Shown here: positions 427 to 51,374 of the stretch, one piece after another
Layout: every line of letters starts with the position of its first letter
Numbering within the stretch: position 1 is the first letter of the stretch
Source: an uncultured virus (IMG/VR IMGVR_UViG_3300037808_001064)
Taxonomy: Duplodnaviria > Heunggongvirae > Uroviricota > Caudoviricetes
Virus record (IMG/VR): IMGVR_UViG_3300037808_001064
DNA length: 64,000 nucleotides
Reading direction: 5' to 3' (one strand)
Notes under the pieces: model-generated
Databases searched by the model: none
What the model was told of the DNA's origin: nothing
Seen by the model: the letters and a program-made list of their open reading frames with translations, nothing else
Translations under genes and position numbers: made by a program

Positions 427-3400
427 TTATTTATTGCGTTCTTTTTGAGCCTTATCCATGATGGCTCTCAATTTGACAGACGCCCGCAATCGGAATGCTG
501 TGGCTTTATCACCAGATTCTTCGATGGCTTCGATCTCACCTTTTTTCATCGCGTACTTTGTGAATGGGCGAACGCCCATCTCTTTGAAGATGGCATCAAC
601 CTCCGACTGCATCATGGAGTGCCGCTGCTGGGGCGAGATTGTAGTGTATTTGGGGCCTAAGAGTAGATTGACGCCCTTTTGCCACCATGTCTTGCGGTTG
701 TCGAGCAAGGTCCGGGTGGTGCTCAGAAGCCGGGCGGCCGGGCTGTTTGACAGGAGATGCTCGGTTCGAAGTCCGATGAATGGAGCCGGCCGACGATCGT
801 CAGGGTCGGCCATGCCAGTGATTTCTTTGGCACGCTTCAGTATTCGGCCGACAGCTGGGTCCAACTCTGACAGCTCACGTCCACCTGTGGGCCCTCGCAT
901 GAACAGAGATCGCCCTGTGGCCAGCTCCACCGGAGCCTTCAACAACGGGTTCATGTTGCCGAAGATGTCAGCCAGGTCAGGCTTCAGCATGGCCACAGCG
1001 TCTTCGTGCATCAACCCGAGGCTGGAGATGTAGGTTTGATTCCCTTTGTCATCCATCCCGCCGGGGATCGCCGCCTGGTCCCGCATGTGAAACGGAACGT
1101 ACTTGTTGTCCTGAGCGTGGCGTTGAGCGCGAATGGTCATGCCGAGACCGCCGGCCGGATGGCGAATAAGCTCCCTCATCACGTACGGGATCTGGCTCGA
1201 CAGGAATGAGTAGAACGGGAACACCCGCTTCATTACGTCCTTCTCGAATTTACTGAACCTGCGTGGGTCGTAGTCGACCAGCGTGTCCTTCGCGCGACTG
1301 ACGGAGTTCCCGAACGTCTCCCCACGTCGCATCTGATCGATCGTCGCCCATGACCTGGTGACTGCATCTGTGTACCCACCAGCCTCTTCTGCGATTCTCG
1401 CTGGGAGAAACTCCGTTGATGATCGGACTTGGTTCTTTAGTTTTGGATTGACAGTCAGGTAGTGAGGAACGCCGTAGTTGTTGATGGGATTGGCTGCGGC
1501 CTTGACCCCACTTTTTTTCACGGACTCAACTGCTGTTTCGCGGAGGTGACCAAAGATCCCTTTGCCTTTGAAGTCAGGAATGCTCTCCCGAAGACTGTCC
1601 AGCGTGCCGGCCTTTTCTGCGTCGAGCAATGGGTTTGCCATGTCCATCGACGTGTGATGGTACGCACCGCCCTGGCTGTAATAAAATTCTCCCCTCCACC
1701 AGTCGAAAGCAGCTTCAGCTTCCGTGTAGGACTCATCCTTCAGTGACATGCTGTGACGTTCGGAGCCAACAAAGTACCTGCCAGCCTTATCTCCACCTTC
1801 CTTGTATTTGTACGACCCACTCTTCTTCAGCATGTCCACAAAGCCATCGACGAAGTTGCCCGATGCAACAGCGTTTGCCATCTTAAAACTGGTCATGGCG
1901 TGAGCTGGCCGGCCAGCATCAACCATGCCAGACTCGATGGCACGATAGGACGCGGACGTGAAGTCTCGTGAGATTCGTCCAGGCCAGGCGAGCACGCCCA
2001 CCTTGAACAGCCGCGTCATGGCGTCCACAAACTGAAGTGCATTGCTGGCACCTCCGTCTAGGTCAAAGAGTGTTTTCTTCGCGAGGTCCATCCCCCCAGC
2101 GAAGTCCACCCAGTCCGCATTGTTGATTTTTATTTTCTTAATGCGTTGCACTTCCGCCTTCAGGAGTGCCGGCACTTCTTTGCCGCTGCCTTTGAGTTTC
2201 TCCGGGTGCAGCTGCTTAGCGATGTTCTCCAAAAACTTGTTTTCATTAAGAACCGTTTTTTGGTTATCGATCAGTGTCTCAATGCTGTTCATGTCGAGCG
2301 CAGCACGCGGGTCTTTCAACTGATCATAAGTTCTGTTTTCCTTAATGAAGTGCATGACGAACTTCTCGAACACATCGAGCTTCGCCTCAGCCATGTTCAT
2401 GTTGTTTCGACTATCGATGTAGTCGAGGTATGGGTCGTTCGAAAATACTCCGTGCTTGCTGTAGGAGGAAAACGGGCTGTCCGCTTTCAGAAGTTCCGGG
2501 ACGATGTACTTGTCGATGCGAGACTCTGTCTCTTCGTACACCCCATGCCATCCCGGAGTTTTAGCTTGCTTGATGTCGTCGGTGAGTTTGCCTTCTTCCT
2601 TCATCTTCTCGAAGAACGCATTGTCTTTCTTGAGTTCTGCTCCCTGTATCTCAGCATCTTCCCGGAAGTCTCTTCCGAGTCTCGCGCCAAACTCGTCGTA
2701 CTTCGGCATCTTGTCAACGATCGTGTCGTTGTAGAAATCCCGAATGTACTGAGCGACCTGTTCGTGCTGAAGTTTCTTGAGTGAGTCGAGGTCGACTTCG
2801 TAACCTTTTTCCACTTTGCTTCTCAGGGTGTTAGCCTTGCTTCTCAGAGACACCTCGACGGTACTACGGAGCTGGGGCCTGACGATCTCCACCACTTCGC
2901 CATGCGCGTTTCTCAGTGCAGCGATCCCGACTCCGGCCTCTTCTGCCTCGTCGATTGCCTTCATGGCCTGTTCGCGGCCATTCTTCACACGATCAAAAAG
3001 TGTGGTTCTGTTGTACCCCTTCACTATTTTCCTGGCATCTTCCGGAGACACCACTGAGTAGCCTTTTGGCAACGCTTCAATGTAATCTTCATCGGCGTTT
3101 TTGGGCCTAACCAATTGCTCCGACATGAACCCTGTCTTCGTGGGGTCAGGATCTGGCTTCAGGAGATTGTCGAACAGATGCTTGGATTGCTGGTGTCCAC
3201 CAGTGGCCCACTTATAGGCAGGTTCTCCGTCTGTTTTCTGAACTGCCCTGTAGCCTGACCCTTTGATTTTGTCGGCCAGCTTTTCGAGCTTGCCGGCAAG
3301 CTCACCCATCGGAACGGTTCGGTTCTCAGCGTCAACCAAGTCATCAAAAATCTTCGCGAGGCTCTCTCCCCCAGGGTTATCAACAGCTTCCAGTGTCTCT

Positions 3401-6400
3401 CTCAGACCCTTGAGCAGGTCATCACTTGCACGCATACGGCCCTTGTACCCATGAGCCAGCATCTCCCTGTTGACACGATTGATAGCCTCGGCCAGCTGGG
3501 GGTCTCGATAGAACTCGTTGACTCCGGCCGTGCCTCTCCTGTTGCCCAGGAGATGTGGCTGCCGATGGTCCTTGCTCCCAAGTCCAGACTGCAAGACCTG
3601 TGGCTCTCCACCGGTCAGCGACTTATCGCCTTCACCTCTGACAGCTTCGAATTCCTGGCCTACTACCTCAGACTGCCGACGACCCACATGGTGCTCTAGT
3701 TGAGCAGCTTTGTCTTTCCAATTGCCGATCTTCAGGCCGCGATCGATCAGCCCTTCAACGATGACCTCCTTGCTTCTCAGCTTTTCGGCCATCGCCTTCA
3801 GCTCAGGAGTGTTCAGGAGGTGGTAATCGAAGTCCTTGACGCCTTCAGCTGCAGCTCGAATCTCCTGATTGAGCATGAACTGGTCCTTGACCTTGCCGCC
3901 TACCAGGCCAGCATCGTCGAGCATGCGATCGAAGACTTCCTTCAGTGGTTCGCTGACTTCCTTCTCAAGCGGAGTGCCCACAATGTTGTCGTAGATTTCC
4001 TTTATCCAGTTCTTCAGCCTGTCGAAGACGTTTCGCAGTGCGGAGTTGCTGGCCTTGCCGTCACGCAGGTATCGCTCGAACCCGGCAGCGAAACCTTCCT
4101 CAGCTTCGACAGACCACTTGCCGCCGGATTCGACTCCGAACTCCTGCTCAGCTTTGCGCATGAGATCAGCCGGCAGCTTACGACGGAAGACGTGAGCTGA
4201 CTCGTGCATGAAGGTGGAGATGTCGGCAGACTTGAATGCGTGGATGATGGTCTCGGAGTTCTTGAACTCGACTGCACCGCGGCCTTTCTGACGGAGGATA
4301 TCTTTGATGGCGATGTCGGCACCGTCGAAGATGACGTAGTTGTAGTCGCGGGTGGGGGCCTTGAAAGCTCCTGACTCTATCGCCTCGATGGCCTTTTCGT
4401 ATCGCTCGACCATCGCTGGGCGAGGAGCATTCCCGGGCTCGCTTTCCAGAAAACTCATCAGAGGGTCGATGCCAGAATCTTCGCCGGCATCAAATCCCTT
4501 GTTTGTTTGCAGCCCCGTGTCTAATTCCTCATCCAGCTCCTTGCGAACCTCCCTTAACACATCGTCCAGGTTCGGCATTTCGTTGCCTTTAATGGCACGG
4601 TTATACCCAGACTGAACCCGCTGAATTACCCCACTGGACAGTTCACTCTCGTACTTCGAAAACGCCGCATCATCCACATATTGCATCTCATACGTGTGAG
4701 GGTTTCTCCCAAAGCCATCAGCGTATTTGATTCCGCGGATACCCTTGCCCAACAGCTCAAGGGAGGCGGCTTTCTTAGGGTCTCCTTCTTTCCCCATCTT
4801 ACGGCCGGGTTTAGATGAATGCTGAGATCGCATCTTTTCATACAGTTCGCTGCCTAGTTGTTCATCCACCTCCTTTGCGGTAAACCTAAGCGGCTTATCG
4901 CTTAATATCTTCCCTCCGACCTGGACCCCTTTACCACTCAGCTCCTCTCTAAGGCTGAAGTATTTTTCATCGAGCCGGGCCCAGCTGTCGCCGTCACCAT
5001 GAAGCTGCTTCCAGCGTTCGTAACCACCAGCGATTTCTTTACGAACATATTTAATTTCATCTTTAAGTCGCTCAATGTCCACCAAGTCCGACGCTGCCGG
5101 GGGCTTGTAACCGAACGCCTCCTTAACCACCTGTGGTTGCTTCGATAAAGGCAGATCCCAATGTAAATAATCATCATCAGTTGGGGCAAGATCCACGTTG
5201 TAGATGGGAGCTTTGCTTAGACTCACGTCTGAGTCTTTGAGTTTCCCGAGCCAATCCAACTCGCCCCTAAGCACGTCAATGCGATCTCTGGTGTCAGCCA
5301 GGTAGCCCGGTTCTGGCCCCGTTGTCCGCGGGTTTTCAGCTTTGAGGGCCGCGTATCTAGATTCATCCCTTGCCAAGCCGTGGGTGGCTTTGGCAAGCCA
5401 GCTCTTTTTTAATTCAATTTGCTGATCGACAGCACGCCTGATTGTGAAGTCATTAGTGGAGATGTCGTTAATGATGTCGTCGTACAGGTTCTTGTATTTC
5501 GCATCAGTTTCTTTGATGGACAAGCCGTTAATTTTGTATCTTCTTCTTGCAAATTGTCGCTGATACGATTCCGCCACTTTCATCGAGTCAGCAAAGTACA
5601 AGCCCCAGCCATAGACCTGTGCTCCTTCACCACCTCCAATGTTGTCCAGCGTGAACTCATCGAAATCATGCGGTGATGCGTGATGTGCCGGATGCCCCAA
5701 CAGCCCCTCTGGCAGGTCTTCAGGCAGGCTCGTCTTGACCGACATCCCTTTGAAGAACTCGTCGGCCGCCTTGTTGTTGTCCCTCGCCCACACCTTCGCG
5801 AACGCCTCCATGACAGGCATCGACTTACCAGCTTTGTCACCAAAGGAATCAACAGCTTCCTTGGAAAACCGGGCCATCTCACCATCTTCAGGGAACTCAA
5901 ACTGAGGCCCTTTCCTGAACTCACTCAGCTGCTTGATCACATTCGAATCGTGATCAAGGAGCGACTCCATCAGACCTTCCTCAATGTCTGAGAATGCCTC
6001 AGACGCCTCATCCCCGAGCCTGCCTCTCACATGATCGTGAGCCATCTGGAGAGCCTCGGACTTGTTGGCAGCACTCAGGCCATGCACGTTCCCATCCCAG
6101 TCCGTCCCTGGCTTAGCGGGGTCGGGAATCAGGTTTTGTTCTTTATCGTACAGCCTCCATTGTGCTTTAGATTTGCCTGCAACTTTCCCTGCCGGCCTGC
6201 CAATGTGGATCCCCATCTCCGTGTGGGTAAGAACTTCCTCAACGCCCTTAAAGTCTCCCAGCTCTTCCCAGCCAAGAGCACTCGCCACTCCTCTTCGATT
6301 GCCTGGTTTCGTGAGGAAGTCCTCAAACTCTGCACTGGGATCACGGACAGTTCCGCGTACCCCTTCTACGTGACCTGCCTTGATGTCCTCGAACCAGTTC

Positions 6401-7509
6401 TTGAGTGGAGTGAACGAAGCTGCCCCTGAATCTCTAAGGATCTCCTCGAACTGACCAGCGAACTCACCGATCTTTTCTGGCGAATAGTTCAGTCCAAGGA
6501 GTTTTTCTTTGATCGGTTCAAACAGAGTTGGCCCATTGGCCAGGGCTTCGGTGTACACGTTCTCAACTTGCTCGGTGCCAGCGGCCATCTTTTCGAAGAT
6601 GTCGTCGCCGTGCGCGAGCCCGAGCGAGTGATAAAGCTCTCTCTGCATGTTGTCAGCGTCGGCCAATGCGGCGTTCATCCCCATGTTTGTTTTGCCGAAC
6701 AATGTCCGCATCAGAGGCTGGTTCATTGCCTTTGATGTGCCGAGAACCGCAGCCTCAAACAAAGACTTCCTGACGAGGTTCATGCCGGTCAATGCGTCCC
6801 CGGCGACCTGACGTGCCAGTCCGAACGGCTCACCGATACCTTTGGTTTTCTCAAGAGCATCGGCAACGCCTGACATGGTCTTCGCCGTCCGCTGCATTCC
6901 TTTGCGGATGAGTCCTTCACCATCCTTCACTCGGGCACCAGTGCTCGACAGCTGCGATCGGAGGCCCCAGTATTCGCCCAGTTCGCTGAAATGGAATGGG
7001 TCAGTAATGTTGTTGATCAATCCTCGGCCGGCGGGAGCAGCCGCTTTGGCTCCACGAGTCGCATCGGCAGCCGCACCGATCGCCTTGAATGGACGTGACA
7101 GCATGTTCATCGGATCCAGAGCCACTTCAGCCATGAACCCGCCAACGTCTCTGACGCCTTCCATGGGATCGTCGATCCATCCGCCCATGCCCGTTTCTTT
7201 GTTGGCGTTCGTGAGACCCCACTGGGTGAGCATGTCACGGCCGGAGACGCGATCCTCCGCGGAGAATGGGCTGAGCAACTGATCGAACGGGTTGTTGCCG
7301 GTGAGCGTGTCCCTGAGCATCGAGCCGGGGATGTCGAGGAAGTTACCGACCGCTCCGACAGCACCAAGGACGGGCCCTGTGATGTCTGTCAGGAGAGAGC
7401 GTGGCTCTTCATCGTAGGCATATTCGCCCTGTGGATCGTTCCGGCTGAGGAGGGCAGTGGAACGAGCTGCTGGGGGGGAGAGGAGGGCTTGAATACGTGC
7501 GTTGGCCAT
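427..7509 (-). CDS. Large polyvalent / internal virion (ejection) protein, 2360 aa, with ADP-ribosyltransferase-like and zincin metallopeptidase-like segments
   Basis: HASPHDFDEFTLDNIGGGEGAQVYGWGLYFA ... NYVIFD resembles the polyvalent ART domain; ADISTFMHESAH is HExxH with a downstream EEGFA; sits at the end of the structural operon. Confidence 0.75.
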   Translation of the reverse strand: MANARIQALLSPPAARSTALLSRNDPQGEYAYDEEPRSLLTDITGPVLGAVGAVGNFLDIPGSMLRDTLTGNNPFDQLLSPFSAEDRVSGRDMLTQWGLTNANKETGMGGWIDDPMEGVRDVGGFMAEVALDPMNMLSRPFKAIGAAADATRGAKAAAPAGRGLINNITDPFHFSELGEYWGLRSQLSSTGARVKDGEGLIRKGMQRTAKTMSGVADALEKTKGIGEPFGLARQVAGDALTGMNLVRKSLFEAAVLGTSKAMNQPLMRTLFGKTNMGMNAALADADNMQRELYHSLGLAHGDDIFEKMAAGTEQVENVYTEALANGPTLFEPIKEKLLGLNYSPEKIGEFAGQFEEILRDSGAASFTPLKNWFEDIKAGHVEGVRGTVRDPSAEFEDFLTKPGNRRGVASALGWEELGDFKGVEEVLTHTEMGIHIGRPAGKVAGKSKAQWRLYDKEQNLIPDPAKPGTDWDGNVHGLSAANKSEALQMAHDHVRGRLGDEASEAFSDIEEGLMESLLDHDSNVIKQLSEFRKGPQFEFPEDGEMARFSKEAVDSFGDKAGKSMPVMEAFAKVWARDNNKAADEFFKGMSVKTSLPEDLPEGLLGHPAHHASPHDFDEFTLDNIGGGEGAQVYGWGLYFADSMKVAESYQRQFARRRYKINGLSIKETDAKYKNLYDDIINDISTNDFTIRRAVDQQIELKKSWLAKATHGLARDESRYAALKAENPRTTGPEPGYLADTRDRIDVLRGELDWLGKLKDSDVSLSKAPIYNVDLAPTDDDYLHWDLPLSKQPQVVKEAFGYKPPAASDLVDIERLKDEIKYVRKEIAGGYERWKQLHGDGDSWARLDEKYFSLREELSGKGVQVGGKILSDKPLRFTAKEVDEQLGSELYEKMRSQHSSKPGRKMGKEGDPKKAASLELLGKGIRGIKYADGFGRNPHTYEMQYVDDAAFSKYESELSSGVIQRVQSGYNRAIKGNEMPNLDDVLREVRKELDEELDTGLQTNKGFDAGEDSGIDPLMSFLESEPGNAPRPAMVERYEKAIEAIESGAFKAPTRDYNYVIFDGADIAIKDILRQKGRGAVEFKNSETIIHAFKSADISTFMHESAHVFRRKLPADLMRKAEQEFGVESGGKWSVEAEEGFAAGFERYLRDGKASNSALRNVFDRLKNWIKEIYDNIVGTPLEKEVSEPLKEVFDRMLDDAGLVGGKVKDQFMLNQEIRAAAEGVKDFDYHLLNTPELKAMAEKLRSKEVIVEGLIDRGLKIGNWKDKAAQLEHHVGRRQSEVVGQEFEAVRGEGDKSLTGGEPQVLQSGLGSKDHRQPHLLGNRRGTAGVNEFYRDPQLAEAINRVNREMLAHGYKGRMRASDDLLKGLRETLEAVDNPGGESLAKIFDDLVDAENRTVPMGELAGKLEKLADKIKGSGYRAVQKTDGEPAYKWATGGHQQSKHLFDNLLKPDPDPTKTGFMSEQLVRPKNADEDYIEALPKGYSVVSPEDARKIVKGYNRTTLFDRVKNGREQAMKAIDEAEEAGVGIAALRNAHGEVVEIVRPQLRSTVEVSLRSKANTLRSKVEKGYEVDLDSLKKLQHEQVAQYIRDFYNDTIVDKMPKYDEFGARLGRDFREDAEIQGAELKKDNAFFEKMKEEGKLTDDIKQAKTPGWHGVYEETESRIDKYIVPELLKADSPFSSYSKHGVFSNDPYLDYIDSRNNMNMAEAKLDVFEKFVMHFIKENRTYDQLKDPRAALDMNSIETLIDNQKTVLNENKFLENIAKQLHPEKLKGSGKEVPALLKAEVQRIKKIKINNADWVDFAGGMDLAKKTLFDLDGGASNALQFVDAMTRLFKVGVLAWPGRISRDFTSASYRAIESGMVDAGRPAHAMTSFKMANAVASGNFVDGFVDMLKKSGSYKYKEGGDKAGRYFVGSERHSMSLKDESYTEAEAAFDWWRGEFYYSQGGAYHHTSMDMANPLLDAEKAGTLDSLRESIPDFKGKGIFGHLRETAVESVKKSGVKAAANPINNYGVPHYLTVNPKLKNQVRSSTEFLPARIAEEAGGYTDAVTRSWATIDQMRRGETFGNSVSRAKDTLVDYDPRRFSKFEKDVMKRVFPFYSFLSSQIPYVMRELIRHPAGGLGMTIRAQRHAQDNKYVPFHMRDQAAIPGGMDDKGNQTYISSLGLMHEDAVAMLKPDLADIFGNMNPLLKAPVELATGRSLFMRGPTGGRELSELDPAVGRILKRAKEITGMADPDDRRPAPFIGLRTEHLLSNSPAARLLSTTRTLLDNRKTWWQKGVNLLLGPKYTTISPQQRHSMMQSEVDAIFKEMGVRPFTKYAMKKGEIEAIEESGDKATAFRLRASVKLRAIMDKAQKERNK

Positions 7510-30056: not shown

Positions 30057-30311
30057 ATGGATACCAGCATCAGTGACAGTGAATTGTCGATAAGCGAGTT
30101 AGCTTTGTACGTCAAAAAAAGGCACAAAAAAACCGTCCGAGAACAGACCCTTTACAAGTGGATCTATCGCGGACGGCAGAATGAGCACGGCGAAGTGCGA
30201 TATCTAAGGTCTTCTCAGATGGGGTTCAGTGCCCCTCATTTTGTTCGGAAAGGTGAGATCAACGAATTCATACTTTGGCTAACTGGGGACGAACGGGACG
30301 AACGGCGGTGA
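30057..30311 (+). CDS. DUF1580-like winged-helix protein (excisionase / RDF-like)
   Basis: QTLYKWIYRG...GEVRYLRS..MG...V...EINEF pattern; convergent with the recombinase. Confidence 0.6.
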   Translation: MDTSISDSELSISELALYVKKRHKKTVREQTLYKWIYRGRQNEHGEVRYLRSSQMGFSAPHFVRKGEINEFILWLTGDERDERR

Positions 30312-31815
30312 CGATTGCCGTTTCACGATCCTCCTCCTCGACCAGCTTCAAATATGACTGATAGTCATCCCAGTGACGGGACATGTGGATCATGAACAGA
30401 TAGCGGTAGGTGGGATTGACGAGCTTCTTTTTTGCCCTTGCTTCTCGACACCGGTCCCTGAACCCTTCTTGCCCTTTGCGAGTGTATAGGGAGTTTGGAT
30501 GTTCCAGGAGGTCCGAGTTCCTTTTCATGGCTAAGAGGGGATCCCACCCGGACTTTGACATTGGAAGCCGATGTTCACGGTGTGCGCAGATGGCTTCCAT
30601 CCTCTCAAAAACCTTCACGCGTGACGGCTCCACCTTCATGTGCTCGTTGACCAACCGGCAATCCTCCAGATAATCAAGGTCCGGAACGATGTGCCGCTCA
30701 GGCTCGCCCTTCTCGTTGTTCAGTATTTTAGAGTGAATCCACTTTGGCAAATGGCGGTCAGCTTTGGGAACCAGCCCGGAATCCCACATCCACGCCAGAG
30801 TGTCGCGGACTCGACGGCGATTCTCTTCGGACTCGATCTGAGCCATCAGGACCATGATCTGCATGGAAAGACGGAATGACATGTCACCGGACTTCATCCC
30901 ACCTTCAGCCAGATGAACAATGATCCCACTATCGTGCAGGTAGTCAACGACTTCAATCATGTCTTTCACGGACCTGAACGCTCTTGCCGGCCGCAGGAAG
31001 ACAATGTGGTCGCCCCTCTTCAGCTTCTTCAGGAGCTGAGACGCTTCCGGCCTCTTGCTGAACTGGACCTTCAGTGCTGAGACTCCTTCGTCCCGAATCA
31101 TTCCACCCGGTGACGCCATGTCGGAGTACAGCCTTTCCATGTACCGATAAACAGGGCCCAGCTGCGACTCAACACTCTGCCGATCGGTTGATACCCGAAC
31201 GTACCCATAAACCTTCCCGGCCGGCAGTGGCTCTTCTTCTTTCTTCTCCGGACGAACCATGGAAGAGATGACTCGATTTGATGCGGTACTGGCCAGGGTG
31301 TTATTCAGCTTGGGTGCCCTCTTCCCGTCCGTGTCGTCCATCAGGCCGTCTTCTCTGGCAACCTGATACTCTCGCATCCGCTCACCGACGATCTCGGACT
31401 TCCACTGAGCGTAGGCAGCCATCACATGTGCCGTGAGCTTCCCGTTGGCAGTCGTGAGATCCAAAGAAGGATGCGACACAAACTTCAGGCTGATGCCGGC
31501 ACCGGTCCAGAACTCAATGTACTGCGCACACTGCCAGAGGTTTCTCCACCCGCGGTCGATCGCGTACATGATGACCGTGTCTCCGGGATTAACATGACGA
31601 ATCAGCTCCCGGCCACCAGCTCGCTGCTCAATGGGAATCTTGTAGGCCGACGCAGAGTCAACGAACACTCCGGGCTCATCGACGTTCGTTTCAGTGCCCA
31701 GATCCAGGCCTTCTCGTTTGACAAGATCCAGACAGAGTTCAGCTTGTGCTGACAGAGAACATCCATCAGACCTCTGCTTGCCGGTCGAAACTCGGCAGTA
31801 AATGTAAGTCGTCAT
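30268..31815 (-). CDS. Serine recombinase with two tandem resolvase catalytic domains
   Basis: YCRVSTGKQ...DRGWR and YVRVSTDRQ...RAFR, each followed by a long E-helix. Confidence 0.85.
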   Translation of the reverse strand: MTTYIYCRVSTGKQRSDGCSLSAQAELCLDLVKREGLDLGTETNVDEPGVFVDSASAYKIPIEQRAGGRELIRHVNPGDTVIMYAIDRGWRNLWQCAQYIEFWTGAGISLKFVSHPSLDLTTANGKLTAHVMAAYAQWKSEIVGERMREYQVAREDGLMDDTDGKRAPKLNNTLASTASNRVISSMVRPEKKEEEPLPAGKVYGYVRVSTDRQSVESQLGPVYRYMERLYSDMASPGGMIRDEGVSALKVQFSKRPEASQLLKKLKRGDHIVFLRPARAFRSVKDMIEVVDYLHDSGIIVHLAEGGMKSGDMSFRLSMQIMVLMAQIESEENRRRVRDTLAWMWDSGLVPKADRHLPKWIHSKILNNEKGEPERHIVPDLDYLEDCRLVNEHMKVEPSRVKVFERMEAICAHREHRLPMSKSGWDPLLAMKRNSDLLEHPNSLYTRKGQEGFRDRCREARAKKKLVNPTYRYLFMIHMSRHWDDYQSYLKLVEEEDRETAIVTAVRPVRPQLAKV

Positions 31816-35748: not shown

Positions 35749-36201
35749 TTATTCCAGCATCGACTCAAGTGACTCTTTCACCTGTTTCAGCTTCCGCACA
35801 ACATCACTGCCAACAATGCCGGCCTTCGACACCGCTATGCCATAAACCCGACACGCATTCCCGTGCAACATCTGAAGCTCCCGCTGCATCACTGCCGACG
35901 TTTTTGCAACCCCACGCATCTTCGGAAGCGACACAAACACTGGCTCGTCATCCGTCGAGGACACGTAACGCACAACGGAACTCGTCACTTCCTCGACAAT
36001 CACCTCGAACTTGCACTTGCGAATGATCGACCGAGCCTGATCTCGCCATCGCTCGGCCGCAGCTGCATGCACATCCCAGGTGAAATCGCCATGACATGGA
36101 TGTCGATCGTCCCTCGCCGCCTCAATCAAATCTTCAGGGTCGACTCTGCCGTCAGACTCCAGCGACCTCACGGCCGCCTCCTTCTCAGTCCATGTCGCCA
36201 T
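35749..36201 (-). CDS. Conserved-looking phage protein, 150 aa, first gene of the RAMP/array operon
   Basis: GGAGG SD with ATG 36201; PEDLIEAAR...HPCH..FTWD...AA...R.QAR.IIR; stop abuts the array. Confidence 0.7.
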   Translation of the reverse strand: MATWTEKEAAVRSLESDGRVDPEDLIEAARDDRHPCHGDFTWDVHAAAAERWRDQARSIIRKCKFEVIVEEVTSSVVRYVSSTDDEPVFVSLPKMRGVAKTSAVMQRELQMLHGNACRVYGIAVSKAGIVGSDVVRKLKQVKESLESMLE

Positions 36202-36330
36202 ATCAGCCTCCAAGTGAAAAATCATTCCTCTGCACCACAATAGACACTCAGGCAAAGTTTGTCCATGGTCATTTTCTGACTATACCAGAAATAAGTGAAC
36301 TCACCGCAACTCACCGCGTCCAAATGGAGC

Positions 36331-36405
36331 TGGGATGTAGCTCAGATTGGCCAGAGTGCTCGGCTTGGACCCGAGAAGTCGCAGGTTCGAATCCTGTCAT
36401 CCCGA
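36331..36405 (+). tRNA. tRNA-Pro(TGG), CCA not encoded
   Basis: Full cloverleaf: TGGGATG/CATCCCG acceptor, CTCGG-CTTGGAC-CCGAG anticodon arm, GCAGG-TTCGAAT-CCTGT T arm, A73. Confidence 0.92.
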
Positions 36406-36414
36406 TCGCGCACG

Positions 36415-36460
36415 AAAAAACCGCTGACTGGTGAGAAATCACTGGTCAGCGGTCTGAATT
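36415..36460. terminator. Probable bidirectional terminator between the tRNA and the convergent gene
   Basis: CCGCTGACTGGTGA-GAAA-TCACTGGTCAGCGG hairpin, preceded by A6. Confidence 0.7.
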
Positions 36461-36482
36461 TCTGAACTGAACTTCTGAGCTT

Positions 36483-36917
36483 TTACCAAACTCGGCAGCT
36501 GTAGCCTCCGAAGTGCGCGACAGCCAGTGGCTCACCGCTTGCCATGCAAGTCTTGCCGCCCGATCCGACGCCAACGAACCTAGCTCCAGCTGGCGTCCTG
36601 CGGAAATGGCCAACTCGGCCGGCCTGAGCCTGCAATCGGCACTCTTCCTCGGCCCATGCCTTCAGGTAGACCGAATGGTCTGTGGTTTTCAGGATGGTCT
36701 TGGTCTTTTCGATCGTTCTCACGGGAGGTCTGCAGACCCCGCCGGAACATGAGGACTGTTTCACCTGCGATACGCCCCGATTCACGCTTTTCAGCCGGTA
36801 ATGCCGCTGAGCCTTCCTTGGTTTGCACGATCGACAGCCCTTTCGGCCGGCATCGGCATCGCTTGAGAACAGGCCAATGGCCACAATCAACGCCAACAAA
36901 CTCCATACACTTCGCAT
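36483..36917 (-). CDS. Secreted basic Cys-containing protein, 144 aa
   Basis: Signal peptide (MRSVWSLLALIVAIGLFSSDADA); CSGGVC motif. Confidence 0.7.
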   Translation of the reverse strand: MRSVWSLLALIVAIGLFSSDADAGRKGCRSCKPRKAQRHYRLKSVNRGVSQVKQSSCSGGVCRPPVRTIEKTKTILKTTDHSVYLKAWAEEECRLQAQAGRVGHFRRTPAGARFVGVGSGGKTCMASGEPLAVAHFGGYSCRVW

Positions 36918-37139
36918 TTCACTTACTCCATTCAGTGAGGGGAAAATTAACAGCCGCGGATTTTGACAGATCGGTTTTTCTCGTCAAGTGGCGGCGTTTT
37001 TTCGTCGACTACTATATAGCGAAAAGTTTTCGTCGGATCCCGGCATCCAATTCCGACTCGGCTCAAACCTAAGGGTCACTACGTATTCTTTCATCGAATT
37101 CCTCCTCACAACTTCATCGCCCAATAAGCAGCCAACTGT

Positions 37140-37246
37140 TGGCACCAAGGGACAGGTGTCGAACCTGCATTGTTAGACCGAGATTAACCGATCATTCAGT
37201 GAGAGGAGACCCCACCGCCGCCTATCGGAATTTACCTACCCTTGGT
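37140..37246 (-). ncRNA. tRNA-like RNA, 107 nt: 8-bp acceptor stem, T arm, G discriminator and CCA, non-canonical core
   Basis: ACCAAGGG...GCAGG-TTCGACA-CCTGT-CCCTTGGT-G-CCA. Confidence 0.7.
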
Positions 37247-37490
37247 TCAGTGTTCTCAAAACATGCTCAACGAATTTCCTGTACGAACCCACATTCGAAA
37301 ACCACGGACGACAGCCCCACCTCAACGGCTTCCACTCACCGTCCGAATCTTTGAATGCACCACGGGGTTCCGTTCGCACCACCGCAGGCTTCCATTTGCC
37401 GTCCGAAAAGACCTCGCCGCTGGGAACGAACCGCTGCCACTTCGCTGGATCACGCTCGATCGCACGTCGTAATGTGTGAAGTTTTCCCAT
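37236..37490 (-). CDS. Hypothetical protein, 84 aa, with an internal DGxWKP repeat
   Basis: GGGGAGAC leader; SDGKWKP and SDGEWKP. Confidence 0.65.
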   Translation of the reverse strand: MGKLHTLRRAIERDPAKWQRFVPSGEVFSDGKWKPAVVRTEPRGAFKDSDGEWKPLRWGCRPWFSNVGSYRKFVEHVLRTLNQG

Positions 37491-37532
37491 CAGTCTCCCC
37501 AGCGTTCTGTGTGTTGCTCTTCTTCCGCTTCC

Positions 37533-37859
37533 TCACAACTTCACCGCCCAATAAGCAGCCTCAGCCTCAACGAACGGATTGGCACGACGCCAGTTCCCAA
37601 CATGCCCCAGCAACAAATGACAATTTATGCCGAACCGTTTCGCCTCGCACAACGGGAGCAAATTCGATACATCCAACTCCAAATCCGGGGCCAGATGAAA
37701 CGGAATAATGTGATGAGCCACCAACGACTTCCGACCACCACAAGACGCACACCGCTTCCCCTTCAGGAATTCATCACGCACCCGTCGCCACTTACCGGAA
37801 CGACGAGCCCCAGGAGGAGCCTTGCCAGATATTCGCTCTGTTAAATCACGCCAACGCAT
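37533..37859 (-). CDS. HNH endonuclease
   Basis: CASC...HHIIP...NLLPLC...CH. Confidence 0.85.
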   Translation of the reverse strand: MRWRDLTERISGKAPPGARRSGKWRRVRDEFLKGKRCASCGGRKSLVAHHIIPFHLAPDLELDVSNLLPLCEAKRFGINCHLLLGHVGNWRRANPFVEAEAAYWAVKL

Positions 37860-51300: not shown

Positions 51301-51374
51301 CCATCATGAGACGCTGCTCACTCGAAAGGGTGGGCAGAGTCCTGCGATGGTGCAGGGTGAGAGGAGACCGAGGG

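Follow-up and report, generated by a model that had tools for sequence, protein, structure and literature searches.

Is the tRNA-like element in a 64-kb stretch of DNA from an uncultured phage (IMG/VR record IMGVR_UViG_3300037808_001064; 64,000 nucleotides, referred to in full as the window) a genuine RNA gene, and what could an RNA of this shape be for? An initial annotation had read positions 37140-37246 as a tRNA mimic that is matured by RNase P and CCA addition and that shuts off or steers many early genes through a central loop antisense to their leaders. We find that the element is real, that it lies on the minus strand (37246-37140), and that it belongs to an undescribed RNA family whose members are neither ordinary nor decayed tRNAs. 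We propose, with a probability of roughly one in two, that the RNA is one half of a two-gene phage module, in which a basic protein of 55-100 residues is paired with a tRNA-derived RNA that acts with it as a non-decoding tRNA mimic.

The open reading frame (ORF) that ends within the element was followed up because its homologues in two viral contigs precede a similar RNA. In both contigs, an RNA comes immediately after the ORF homologue; it has a canonical T arm and a 5' motif in common with the element, and its acceptor stem differs in sequence yet stays complementary. Scans of three collections with a profile of the protein alignment A1 found loci in metagenomes (30), viral sequences (2), and metagenome-assembled genomes (MAGs; 2). 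Two of these hits (L034, L035) are false positives that resemble nucleoside hydrolases. Among the 32 true protein loci, the RNA is present in 27 and cut off by the contig end in 3 (L025, L027, L031); the other 2 hold ORF remnants. One remnant (L033, 1167-1211) consists of the first 45 nucleotides, or 15 codons, of the partner ORF fused to unrelated DNA, and the other (L036) is a similar remnant of 22 codons. We obtained 22 distinct copies of the RNA, the window included, with lengths of about 100-200 nucleotides and a minimum of 97 nucleotides in L014. In the window, the ORF and the RNA are laid out as follows:

37236-37490, minus strand: partner ORF of 84 residues, MGKLHTLRRAIERDP...YRKFVEHVL, ending within the element.
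37141-37245, minus strand: tRNA-like RNA, family core in its version with a 7-bp acceptor stem (covariance model R1, 83.2 bits, E 2.6e-19).
37239-37245, minus strand: 5' strand of the acceptor stem, CCAAGGG, which doubles as code for the last residues of the ORF.
37227-37238, minus strand: invariant U8-A9, then a mini hairpin GG(UAAAUU)CC at the place of the D arm.
37224-37226, minus strand: invariant GAU, candidate partner of R-Y-C in the hairpin-2 loop in a 3-bp pseudoknot.
37197-37217, minus strand: variable hairpin CGGUGGGG-UCUCC-UCUCACUG, which includes GGUCUCCU and is the least conserved arm.
37176-37193, minus strand: hairpin 2, which takes the position of the anticodon arm; its 5-bp stem is GAUCG/CGGUC and its 8-nucleotide loop is GUUAAUCU.
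37152-37168, minus strand: T arm GCAGG-UUCGACA-CCUGU.
37140-37151, minus strand: 3' strand of the acceptor stem, CCCUUGG(U), then G and CCA (37143-37140).

The acceptor strand ACCAAGGG (37246-37239) is complementary to CCCUUGGU (37151-37144). GGUCUCCU occupies RNA positions 36-43 and UCUCGGUCU positions 64-72, the latter within hairpin 2, which in the window copy is separated from the T arm by a 7-nucleotide linker. The sequence itself shows that the partner ORF stops at a UAG formed by U8-A9-G10. Compared with the family core, the limits first given for the element take in one more A-U pair, which is optional, and the final A of CCA. An 8-bp acceptor stem on a 5-bp T arm, as described in the initial annotation, is present in the window, but the family geometry is 7/5 and the eighth pair is possible only in the window, L007, and L008. 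The encoded G73-CCA end is likewise there but is specific to the window copy, as L007 and L008 have C-CCU in place of G-CCA. At the junction of the RNA with a direct repeat lies a small hairpin (GCCAA-CAG-UUGGC, 37131-37143, minus strand), which encloses the CCA and precedes a U-rich stretch. Model R1, derived from 16 relatives, recognizes this element as the sole copy in the window and gives the tRNA-Pro of the window 23 bits. The 107 nucleotides taken in isolation have an unremarkable fold energy (z = -1.4).

The evidence for a conserved structure comes from compensatory change. We compared a structure read by eye with a MAFFT alignment (A2) of 16 distinct copies. Pairing holds in 97.7% of cells, against 78.5% in shuffles, and both partners change in 13 of the 22 pairs; covariation scores 0.594, compared with 0.209 in shuffles, none of 500 of which reaches it, and with at most 0.161 when the partners are slid. 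Covariation is seen in four helices: the 7-bp acceptor stem (both-side changes in six of seven pairs across the 16 sequences), the 5-bp T arm with its canonical T loop (three of five pairs, 100% of cells paired), hairpin 2 (also three of five pairs and 100% of cells), and the 2-bp mini hairpin (one of two pairs, namely 11:29, in 1 of 16 sequences). These compensatory changes show that the RNA is conserved and structured, and they argue against decay. They preserve the acceptor/T-arm minihelix across 16 distinct relatives. The proposal of a tRNA mimic as opposed to a decoding tRNA is supported.

Outside the helices, alignment columns T8, A9, and G10 are invariant, as are the CGAU that follows the mini hairpin and much of the hairpin-2 loop. 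The consensus of this 8-nucleotide loop is G-UU-N-R-Y-C-K, with N free, R either A or G, Y mostly U, and C fixed. We infer that the loop is probably tied back to the invariant GAU by a 3-bp pseudoknot; the GAU:R-Y-C contact is paired in 97.9% of cells. The variable arm ranges from about 18 nucleotides (L014, with a 3-nucleotide loop) to about 45 nucleotides and has no conserved loop. Its minimum-free-energy fold in the window has 8 bp and a 5-nucleotide loop, so that the central hairpin of 7 bp and 7 loop nucleotides described at the outset is one option, and in L007 and L008 the 8 bp are closed by a 3-nucleotide loop. Longer versions of this arm (L009 880-905, L015, L011) enclose a further hairpin whose loop is of the UUGAU type (for example GGCUG-GUUGAUU-CGGCC) and which resembles a second T-arm-like module.

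As to how the RNA relates to known classes, we consider first L014, the best of the relatives with the Rfam tRNA model (RF00005; 27.7 bits, threshold 29), in whose alignment hairpin 2 falls on the anticodon arm and a 34-nucleotide insert falls at the D arm. Given this near pass, we conclude that the RNA is tRNA-derived, and its interior is predicted to make it unable to serve as a normal decoder. As in canonical tRNAs, an acceptor stem of 7 bp stacks on a T arm of 5 bp whose loop is of the UUCRANN type. In place of the expected D arm of 3-4 bp there are only the 2-bp GG/CC hairpin and the variable hairpin, and the hairpin-2 loop described above stands where a tRNA has an anticodon loop of 7 nucleotides that includes U33 and a purine 37. 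The absence of a UCA loop and of a normal D arm, noted previously, is thus confirmed on the minus strand, and the ARAGORN and Rfam scoring that had been suggested as a check agrees, in that no family reaches its threshold. Default ARAGORN does not call the element, its sole call in the window being a tRNA-Pro(UGG) at 36331-36405 on the plus strand. Rfam gives no other match at gathering thresholds in the whole window, nor at E <= 10 in 36200-37700. When ARAGORN is run with introns allowed and the threshold at 80% (-i -ps80), it reports an implausible tRNA-Glu(ctc) with a 36-nucleotide 'intron', along with two equally odd calls within the same 2 kb.

We reject an ordinary or decayed tRNA because tRNA models fail on the element and because its conservation and covariation contradict decay. 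A selenocysteine tRNA (tRNA-Sec; RF01852) is also rejected: there is no UCA loop and no match in the window, and L013 reaches 21.5 bits with a threshold of 47. An 8/5 geometry is possible in the three copies that allow an eighth pair; all other members are 7/5. Transfer-messenger RNA (tmRNA) is rejected as well: ARAGORN finds none, the best Rfam tmRNA match has 13.4 bits with a threshold of 84, and the G3-U70 alanine identity pair does not occur, pair 3:70 being CG in 8 copies, AU in 3, GC in 3, UA in 1, and UG in 1. We give very little credence to an unusual decoding tRNA that would read, for example, four-base or special codons through the 8-nucleotide loop. Hairpin 2 does resemble an anticodon arm in its 5-bp stem and its distance of 5-7 nucleotides from the T arm, and one locus lies within a tRNA cluster, but the loop has 8 nucleotides with a C at the would-be purine position 37, the would-be triplets vary (AAU, CAU, UAU, GAU, AGU, CGU, GGU, GGC), the RNA has no D arm, and neither default ARAGORN nor Rfam calls it. 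The discriminator base and acceptor pairs vary too, so that there is no common identity set. The genuine tRNA-Pro(UGG) of the window (60.7 bits) lies about 740 nucleotides from the element and runs opposite to the leftward genes around it.

Each RNA copy adjoins or overlaps a gene for a protein of 55-100 residues with the N-terminus MGKLHTLRRAIERDP, making the RNA obligatorily adjacent to one protein family. The protein is basic, and an exhaustive profile search yields 234 clusters (50% identity) with a cutoff of E <= 1e-3, or 108 with E <= 1e-10; almost all are 55-100 residues long. Synonymous sites vary between copies of the ORF, which argues for selection on the peptide. In alignment A1 (11 sequences), 13 of the 15 N-terminal residues are invariant, and A10 and D14 are conserved in at least 90% of rows; in an alignment of 125 sequences, the positions conserved at 90% or above are M1, K3, L4, H5, L7, R9, I11, R13, P15, W53, Y70, F73, and L78. 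AlphaFold2 run on the 125 sequences predicts an N-terminal helix, a small sheet, and a C-terminal helix (predicted local distance difference test, pLDDT, 81), whereas the prediction from 11 sequences is too weak for use (pLDDT 53). The protein has no match in Pfam, PHROGs, PADLOC, NCBIfam, or PDB sequences and no usable match in the ESM Atlas; two family members searched by tblastn against 50,697 GenBank phages gave no match, and the string MGKLHTLRR was not found in the literature.

The arrangement of the two genes is close and varied. In 8 distinct copies the ORF stops 4-8 nucleotides short of the RNA; in 12 the stop falls 10-60 nucleotides inside it, and in 6 of these 12, including the window, the UAG is U8-A9-G10. 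L023 is counted in neither group. The order is reversed in L010, where the RNA ends 12 nucleotides before the ATG of the ORF and the module lies among tRNA genes; this metagenome contig (1-5171) has a cluster of 16 of them in 5 kb, and its module RNA measures 202 nucleotides. Distant loci have no gene in common except the small ORF. Model R1 finds one copy in each of two MAG genomes and otherwise ordinary tRNAs, and among 151 genomes of one phylum it finds only the seed genome under strict filters. Searching viral contigs for the pattern TAGGCANNGCCGATGNGGGG returned the two known loci and two chance matches in coding DNA (L004, L005), while a gapped RNA pattern and an exact 29-mer had no matches there.

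Such an arrangement could also mean that the RNA acts purely in cis, as a tRNA-like fold that marks a cut or stabilized 3' end of the ORF mRNA in the manner of mascRNA or t-element 'punctuation', with the released RNA functionless. In 20 of 22 distinct copies, the RNA borders on the 3' end of the ORF or overlaps it, and Rfam gives weak mascRNA matches on the acceptor/T-arm part (15.7-20 bits, threshold 42.5). The fold would permit cleavage by RNase P and RNase Z at the mimic. This explanation does not account for the RNA that lies upstream of the ORF in L010, nor for invariant internal positions and a covarying hairpin 2 that cutting does not need. A generic maker of transcript ends would also be expected beside many kinds of genes, whereas this ORF is the only gene common to the loci, although the loci were collected via the ORF. 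We consider the purely cis-acting explanation possible but unlikely.

We favor instead a particle that acts in trans over a mere cutting signal, because of the invariant internal positions and the reversed order in L010. The ORF and the RNA would be made on one transcript. RNase P and the CCA-adding enzyme recognize a tRNA by its acceptor/T-arm minihelix, and on that ground the maturation pathway of the initial annotation is a reasonable inference from the conserved minihelix. RNase P would cut at the 5' end of the acceptor stem, the same cut terminating the ORF mRNA, and 3' trimming and CCA addition would then yield a stable tRNA-shaped RNA. RNase P does not need the invariant UAG, CGAU, and GUU..C loop, and these positions argue for a specific partner. 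In trans, the mature RNA and its dedicated protein would form a small ribonucleoprotein that acts on a host or phage factor recognizing the tRNA shape.

Several observations weigh against this proposal. The pseudoknot shows no covariation, because GAU never varies, and N-CCA is in register in only 6 of the 16 aligned members. Cutting at the 5' end of the acceptor stem would remove the ORF stop or the last codons in 12 of the 22 copies, which is awkward for a scheme that cuts and uses both products; such loss of the stop may couple the fate of the protein to maturation of the RNA. Fold searches with the partner protein gave no convincing relative, the best hits being E 0.25 with Foldseek against PDB and Z 3.7 with VIA-align over 48,161 chains. 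Finally, binding of the protein to its RNA is predicted from the linkage of their genes, and expression, RNA ends, and cleavage are predictions from sequence.

A more specific version of the proposal would make the module a new class of phage ribonucleoprotein, in which a tRNA-shaped RNA with a tied-back loop and its dedicated protein would occupy or decoy a universally conserved tRNA-binding factor, the fast-evolving variable arm would tune the particle to each phage-host pair, and the anti-Shine-Dalgarno complementarity would be functional in the lineage of the window. Candidates for such a factor include an immune nuclease that targets tRNAs, a toxin that modifies tRNA ends, and a component of the translation apparatus. 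In this version, the first 15 residues of the protein would be those kept nearly invariant across hosts of different phyla. We regard it as speculative and rather improbable.

The module also behaves as a cassette, which in the window is framed by a direct repeat:

37530-37560, minus strand: copy 1 of the 31-nucleotide direct repeat, at the end of an HNH gene and in the leader.
37134-37529, minus strand: 396-bp segment consisting of a leader remnant, the ORF, and the RNA; missing at this site in L008.
37103-37133, minus strand: copy 2 of the repeat, with the ribosome-binding site for the small ORF that comes next (ATG at 37094).

The two repeat copies, which differ by one mismatch, flank the 396-bp segment. 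The closest relative, L008, matches window positions 38713-37530 at 96% and 37133-36421 at 98%, and its empty site joins the equivalents of 37530 and 37133 through a single repeat (4550-4580). L008 carries its own ORF and RNA (90.7% identical to window 37490-37136) about 1.7 kb away, in a stretch that the window does not have. Its partner protein is 85% identical to that of the window, and that of L007 is 100% identical by tblastn. In L009 and L039, the cassette sits at a third place, after an ORF of 72 residues that is truncated in the window; this small ORF (MKEYV...), which follows the repeat, has 36 residues in the window and 72 in L009. Homology between cassettes starts at or just before the ATG and stops about 7 nucleotides past the acceptor stem. 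Among DNA contigs of other samples, from four seawater sequencing runs, there are alternative junctions at 37133 and 37136 that lead into contexts of the L007 type and the L008 type. The sequencing runs listed as containing this stretch include no RNA run. The ORF and the RNA thus move as a unit, both between and within phage genomes, in a region of small genes that is mosaic in general.

Such mobility could be the purpose of the cassette, with the tRNA-like end as an attachment-site-like or priming structure of a selfish element or recombination site and the ORF serving its movement. The sharp boundaries, the four different downstream contexts, the direct repeat around the segment, and the 45-nucleotide remnant fused to unrelated DNA in L033 are all in keeping with this idea. 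We nonetheless find it quite improbable, as the cassette holds no integrase, reverse transcriptase, or nuclease and its protein has only 55-100 residues, and as the surroundings are mosaic anyway, L008 differing by several genes. The compensatory changes, moreover, point to selection on an RNA fold and not on a DNA site. An HNH-motif ORF of 108 residues (37533-37859, minus strand; Pfam E 1.5e-4) lies directly upstream of the module and has its stop just before the repeat; in L008 this gene is in place while the module sits elsewhere, which speaks against a joint element.

The antisense function put forward in the initial annotation turns on AGGAGACC, which had been taken for a motif of early-gene leaders. 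It is enriched in the window, with 13 sites where 2.3 are expected, and AGACCGAGA has 5 sites where 0.6 are expected. Of the 13 sites, 11 precede an ATG by 3-6 nucleotides and share the strand of the local genes, and from this placement we conclude that AGGAGACC is the extended Shine-Dalgarno sequence of the phage, that is, a ribosome-binding site. It occurs as AGGAGACC(A/G)A.. before 11 genes between 39236 and 51369, and the site in the element is the sole one antisense to local transcription. The plus-strand 13-mer GTGAGAGGAGACC does recur at 51357-51369, as had been reported, but the match is not above chance: exact matches of at least 13 nucleotides elsewhere were found for 61 of 300 random 105-nucleotide segments of the window. 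The UCUCGGUCU of the second arm is also present, but it is mostly the 3' strand of hairpin 2, which is conserved and covaries in the family.

Under the antisense explanation, the arms would pair with AGGAGACCGAGA leaders and shut off or steer the translation of many genes. The RNA contains complements of both AGGAGACC and AGACCGAGA, and its raw duplex energy with 12 leaders is -27.2, beyond all 100 shuffles (-20.8 +/- 2.1). With the same leaders, L007 has -26.6, L009 -25.6, L008 -25.4, and other family members -20.7 to -24.7. However, any CU-rich strand that faces the conserved G-rich strand of the family mimics an anti-Shine-Dalgarno sequence, and most of each motif is base-paired, so that opening would cost 4.0 kcal/mol for GGUCUCCU and 3.9 kcal/mol for UCUCGGUCU. 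The arm that would seed pairing is unconserved in the family and polymorphic in natural populations, even between seawater populations that are nearly identical. Contigs from three of the four seawater runs carry a G>A change at 37208 (C to U in the RNA loop) and a 2-nucleotide deletion at 37201; L008 shares both changes and has lost the exact complement of AGGAGACC, with flanks that are 96-98% identical, although the C-to-U variants (L008, L009) could still pair by G-U wobble.

We further crossed each RNA with the leaders of each locus and double-centred the energies, reading only loci with at least five predicted genes; loci with one or two 'genes' (L012, L009, L024) were left out, as their spurious antisense ORFs overlap the RNA. 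Values for own leaders were -1.7 in the window, -0.6 in L008, -1.7 in L001, -0.3 in L017, 0.0 in L028, +0.7 in L015, and +1.6 in L029, with an off-diagonal standard deviation of 2.0. There is thus no general preference of the RNA for the leaders of its own phage among these loci, and the lineages beyond that of the window lack complementarity to their own. With the arm in question the least conserved and polymorphic, early-gene shut-off by the central loop is not upheld, and we judge an antisense RNA of this kind very unlikely. Leader pairing in the window lineage may be a lineage-specific side effect.

Among known systems, phage tRNA look-alikes of the T4 rnaC/rnaD type have been known for decades and, to our knowledge, have no assigned function. 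The T4 RNAs (species 1/2 stable RNAs, annotated in NC_000866) are likewise small, lie near tRNA genes, and have a tRNA-type T arm. Neither T4 RNA is homologous to the element, and the 19.4 bits of rnaC with model R1 fall within the 10.6-22.1 bits of the real tRNAs of T4; nor does T4 have a linked MGKLHTLRR protein, none being present in the 50,697 GenBank phage records. In mascRNA (MALAT1) and in mitochondrial and archaeal t-elements, an acceptor/T-arm mimic is joined to a transcript, and its excision sets the transcript end. To such a mimic the module adds conserved arms, invariant loops, an exclusive protein, and one case in which the RNA lies upstream. The ends of the bacterial Y RNA YrlA form a Ro-binding stem and not an acceptor stem, and the element has no Rfam Y RNA match and no Ro60 gene nearby. 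YrlA is otherwise comparable as a non-coding RNA with a tRNA-like module that is bound by Ro60 in a ribonucleoprotein, as passages of PMC4201824 describe.

The tmRNA of phage DS6A, according to portions of PMC11915505, consists of a tRNA-like domain without a tag reading frame and inhibits host tmRNA. Both it and the module RNA are phage-borne, tRNA-like, and non-decoding; the latter lacks G3-U70 and has another interior and a protein of its own that is not SmpB. Canonical tRNAs, tRNA-Sec, and allo-tRNAs (as covered in parts of PMC5389517) share with the element U8, the acceptor stem, a T arm whose loop is UUCGANN, and a stem of 5 bp where the anticodon arm lies, and differ from it in the D arm, in the anticodon loop, which in the element is not one of 7 nucleotides, in the sub-threshold scores of the element, and in its 7/5 as opposed to 8/5 geometry. 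VIPR guide RNAs, which are described in sections of bioRxiv 10.64898/2026.10.15.759431 as arrays of GGYNN repeats, are unrelated. None of T4 rnaC/rnaD, the processing signals, DS6A tmRNA, and the Y RNAs has the architecture or the partner of the module, and literature searches on phage tRNA-like RNAs, mimics, and decoys, supplements excluded, gave no description of it. The RNA family and the protein family, which come with cassette behavior, are new; phage tRNA mimics as such are known.

As to the phage itself, the window shows no resemblance to GenBank phages beyond the tRNA-Pro gene. It encodes a terminase, a Dda-like helicase, and a large serine recombinase of 515 residues (30268-31815, minus strand; PHROG DNA invertase or integrase, E 2e-45), on account of which the phage may be temperate. 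A single ORF of 2360 residues occupies 427-7509 on the minus strand, and the sign of the GC skew flips near 38-40 kb, at the divergence of the leftward from the rightward genes.

Collectively, these findings mean that tRNA finders and Rfam overlook a whole family of tRNA-derived genes. With its obligatory partner, its sharp cassette limits, a protein family of 234 clusters, and a structure backed by covariation, the module offers a handle on phage tRNA look-alikes. If the pair acts on host factors that recognize tRNAs, it would add an RNA-protein entry to the tools by which phages counter host defense or take over translation.

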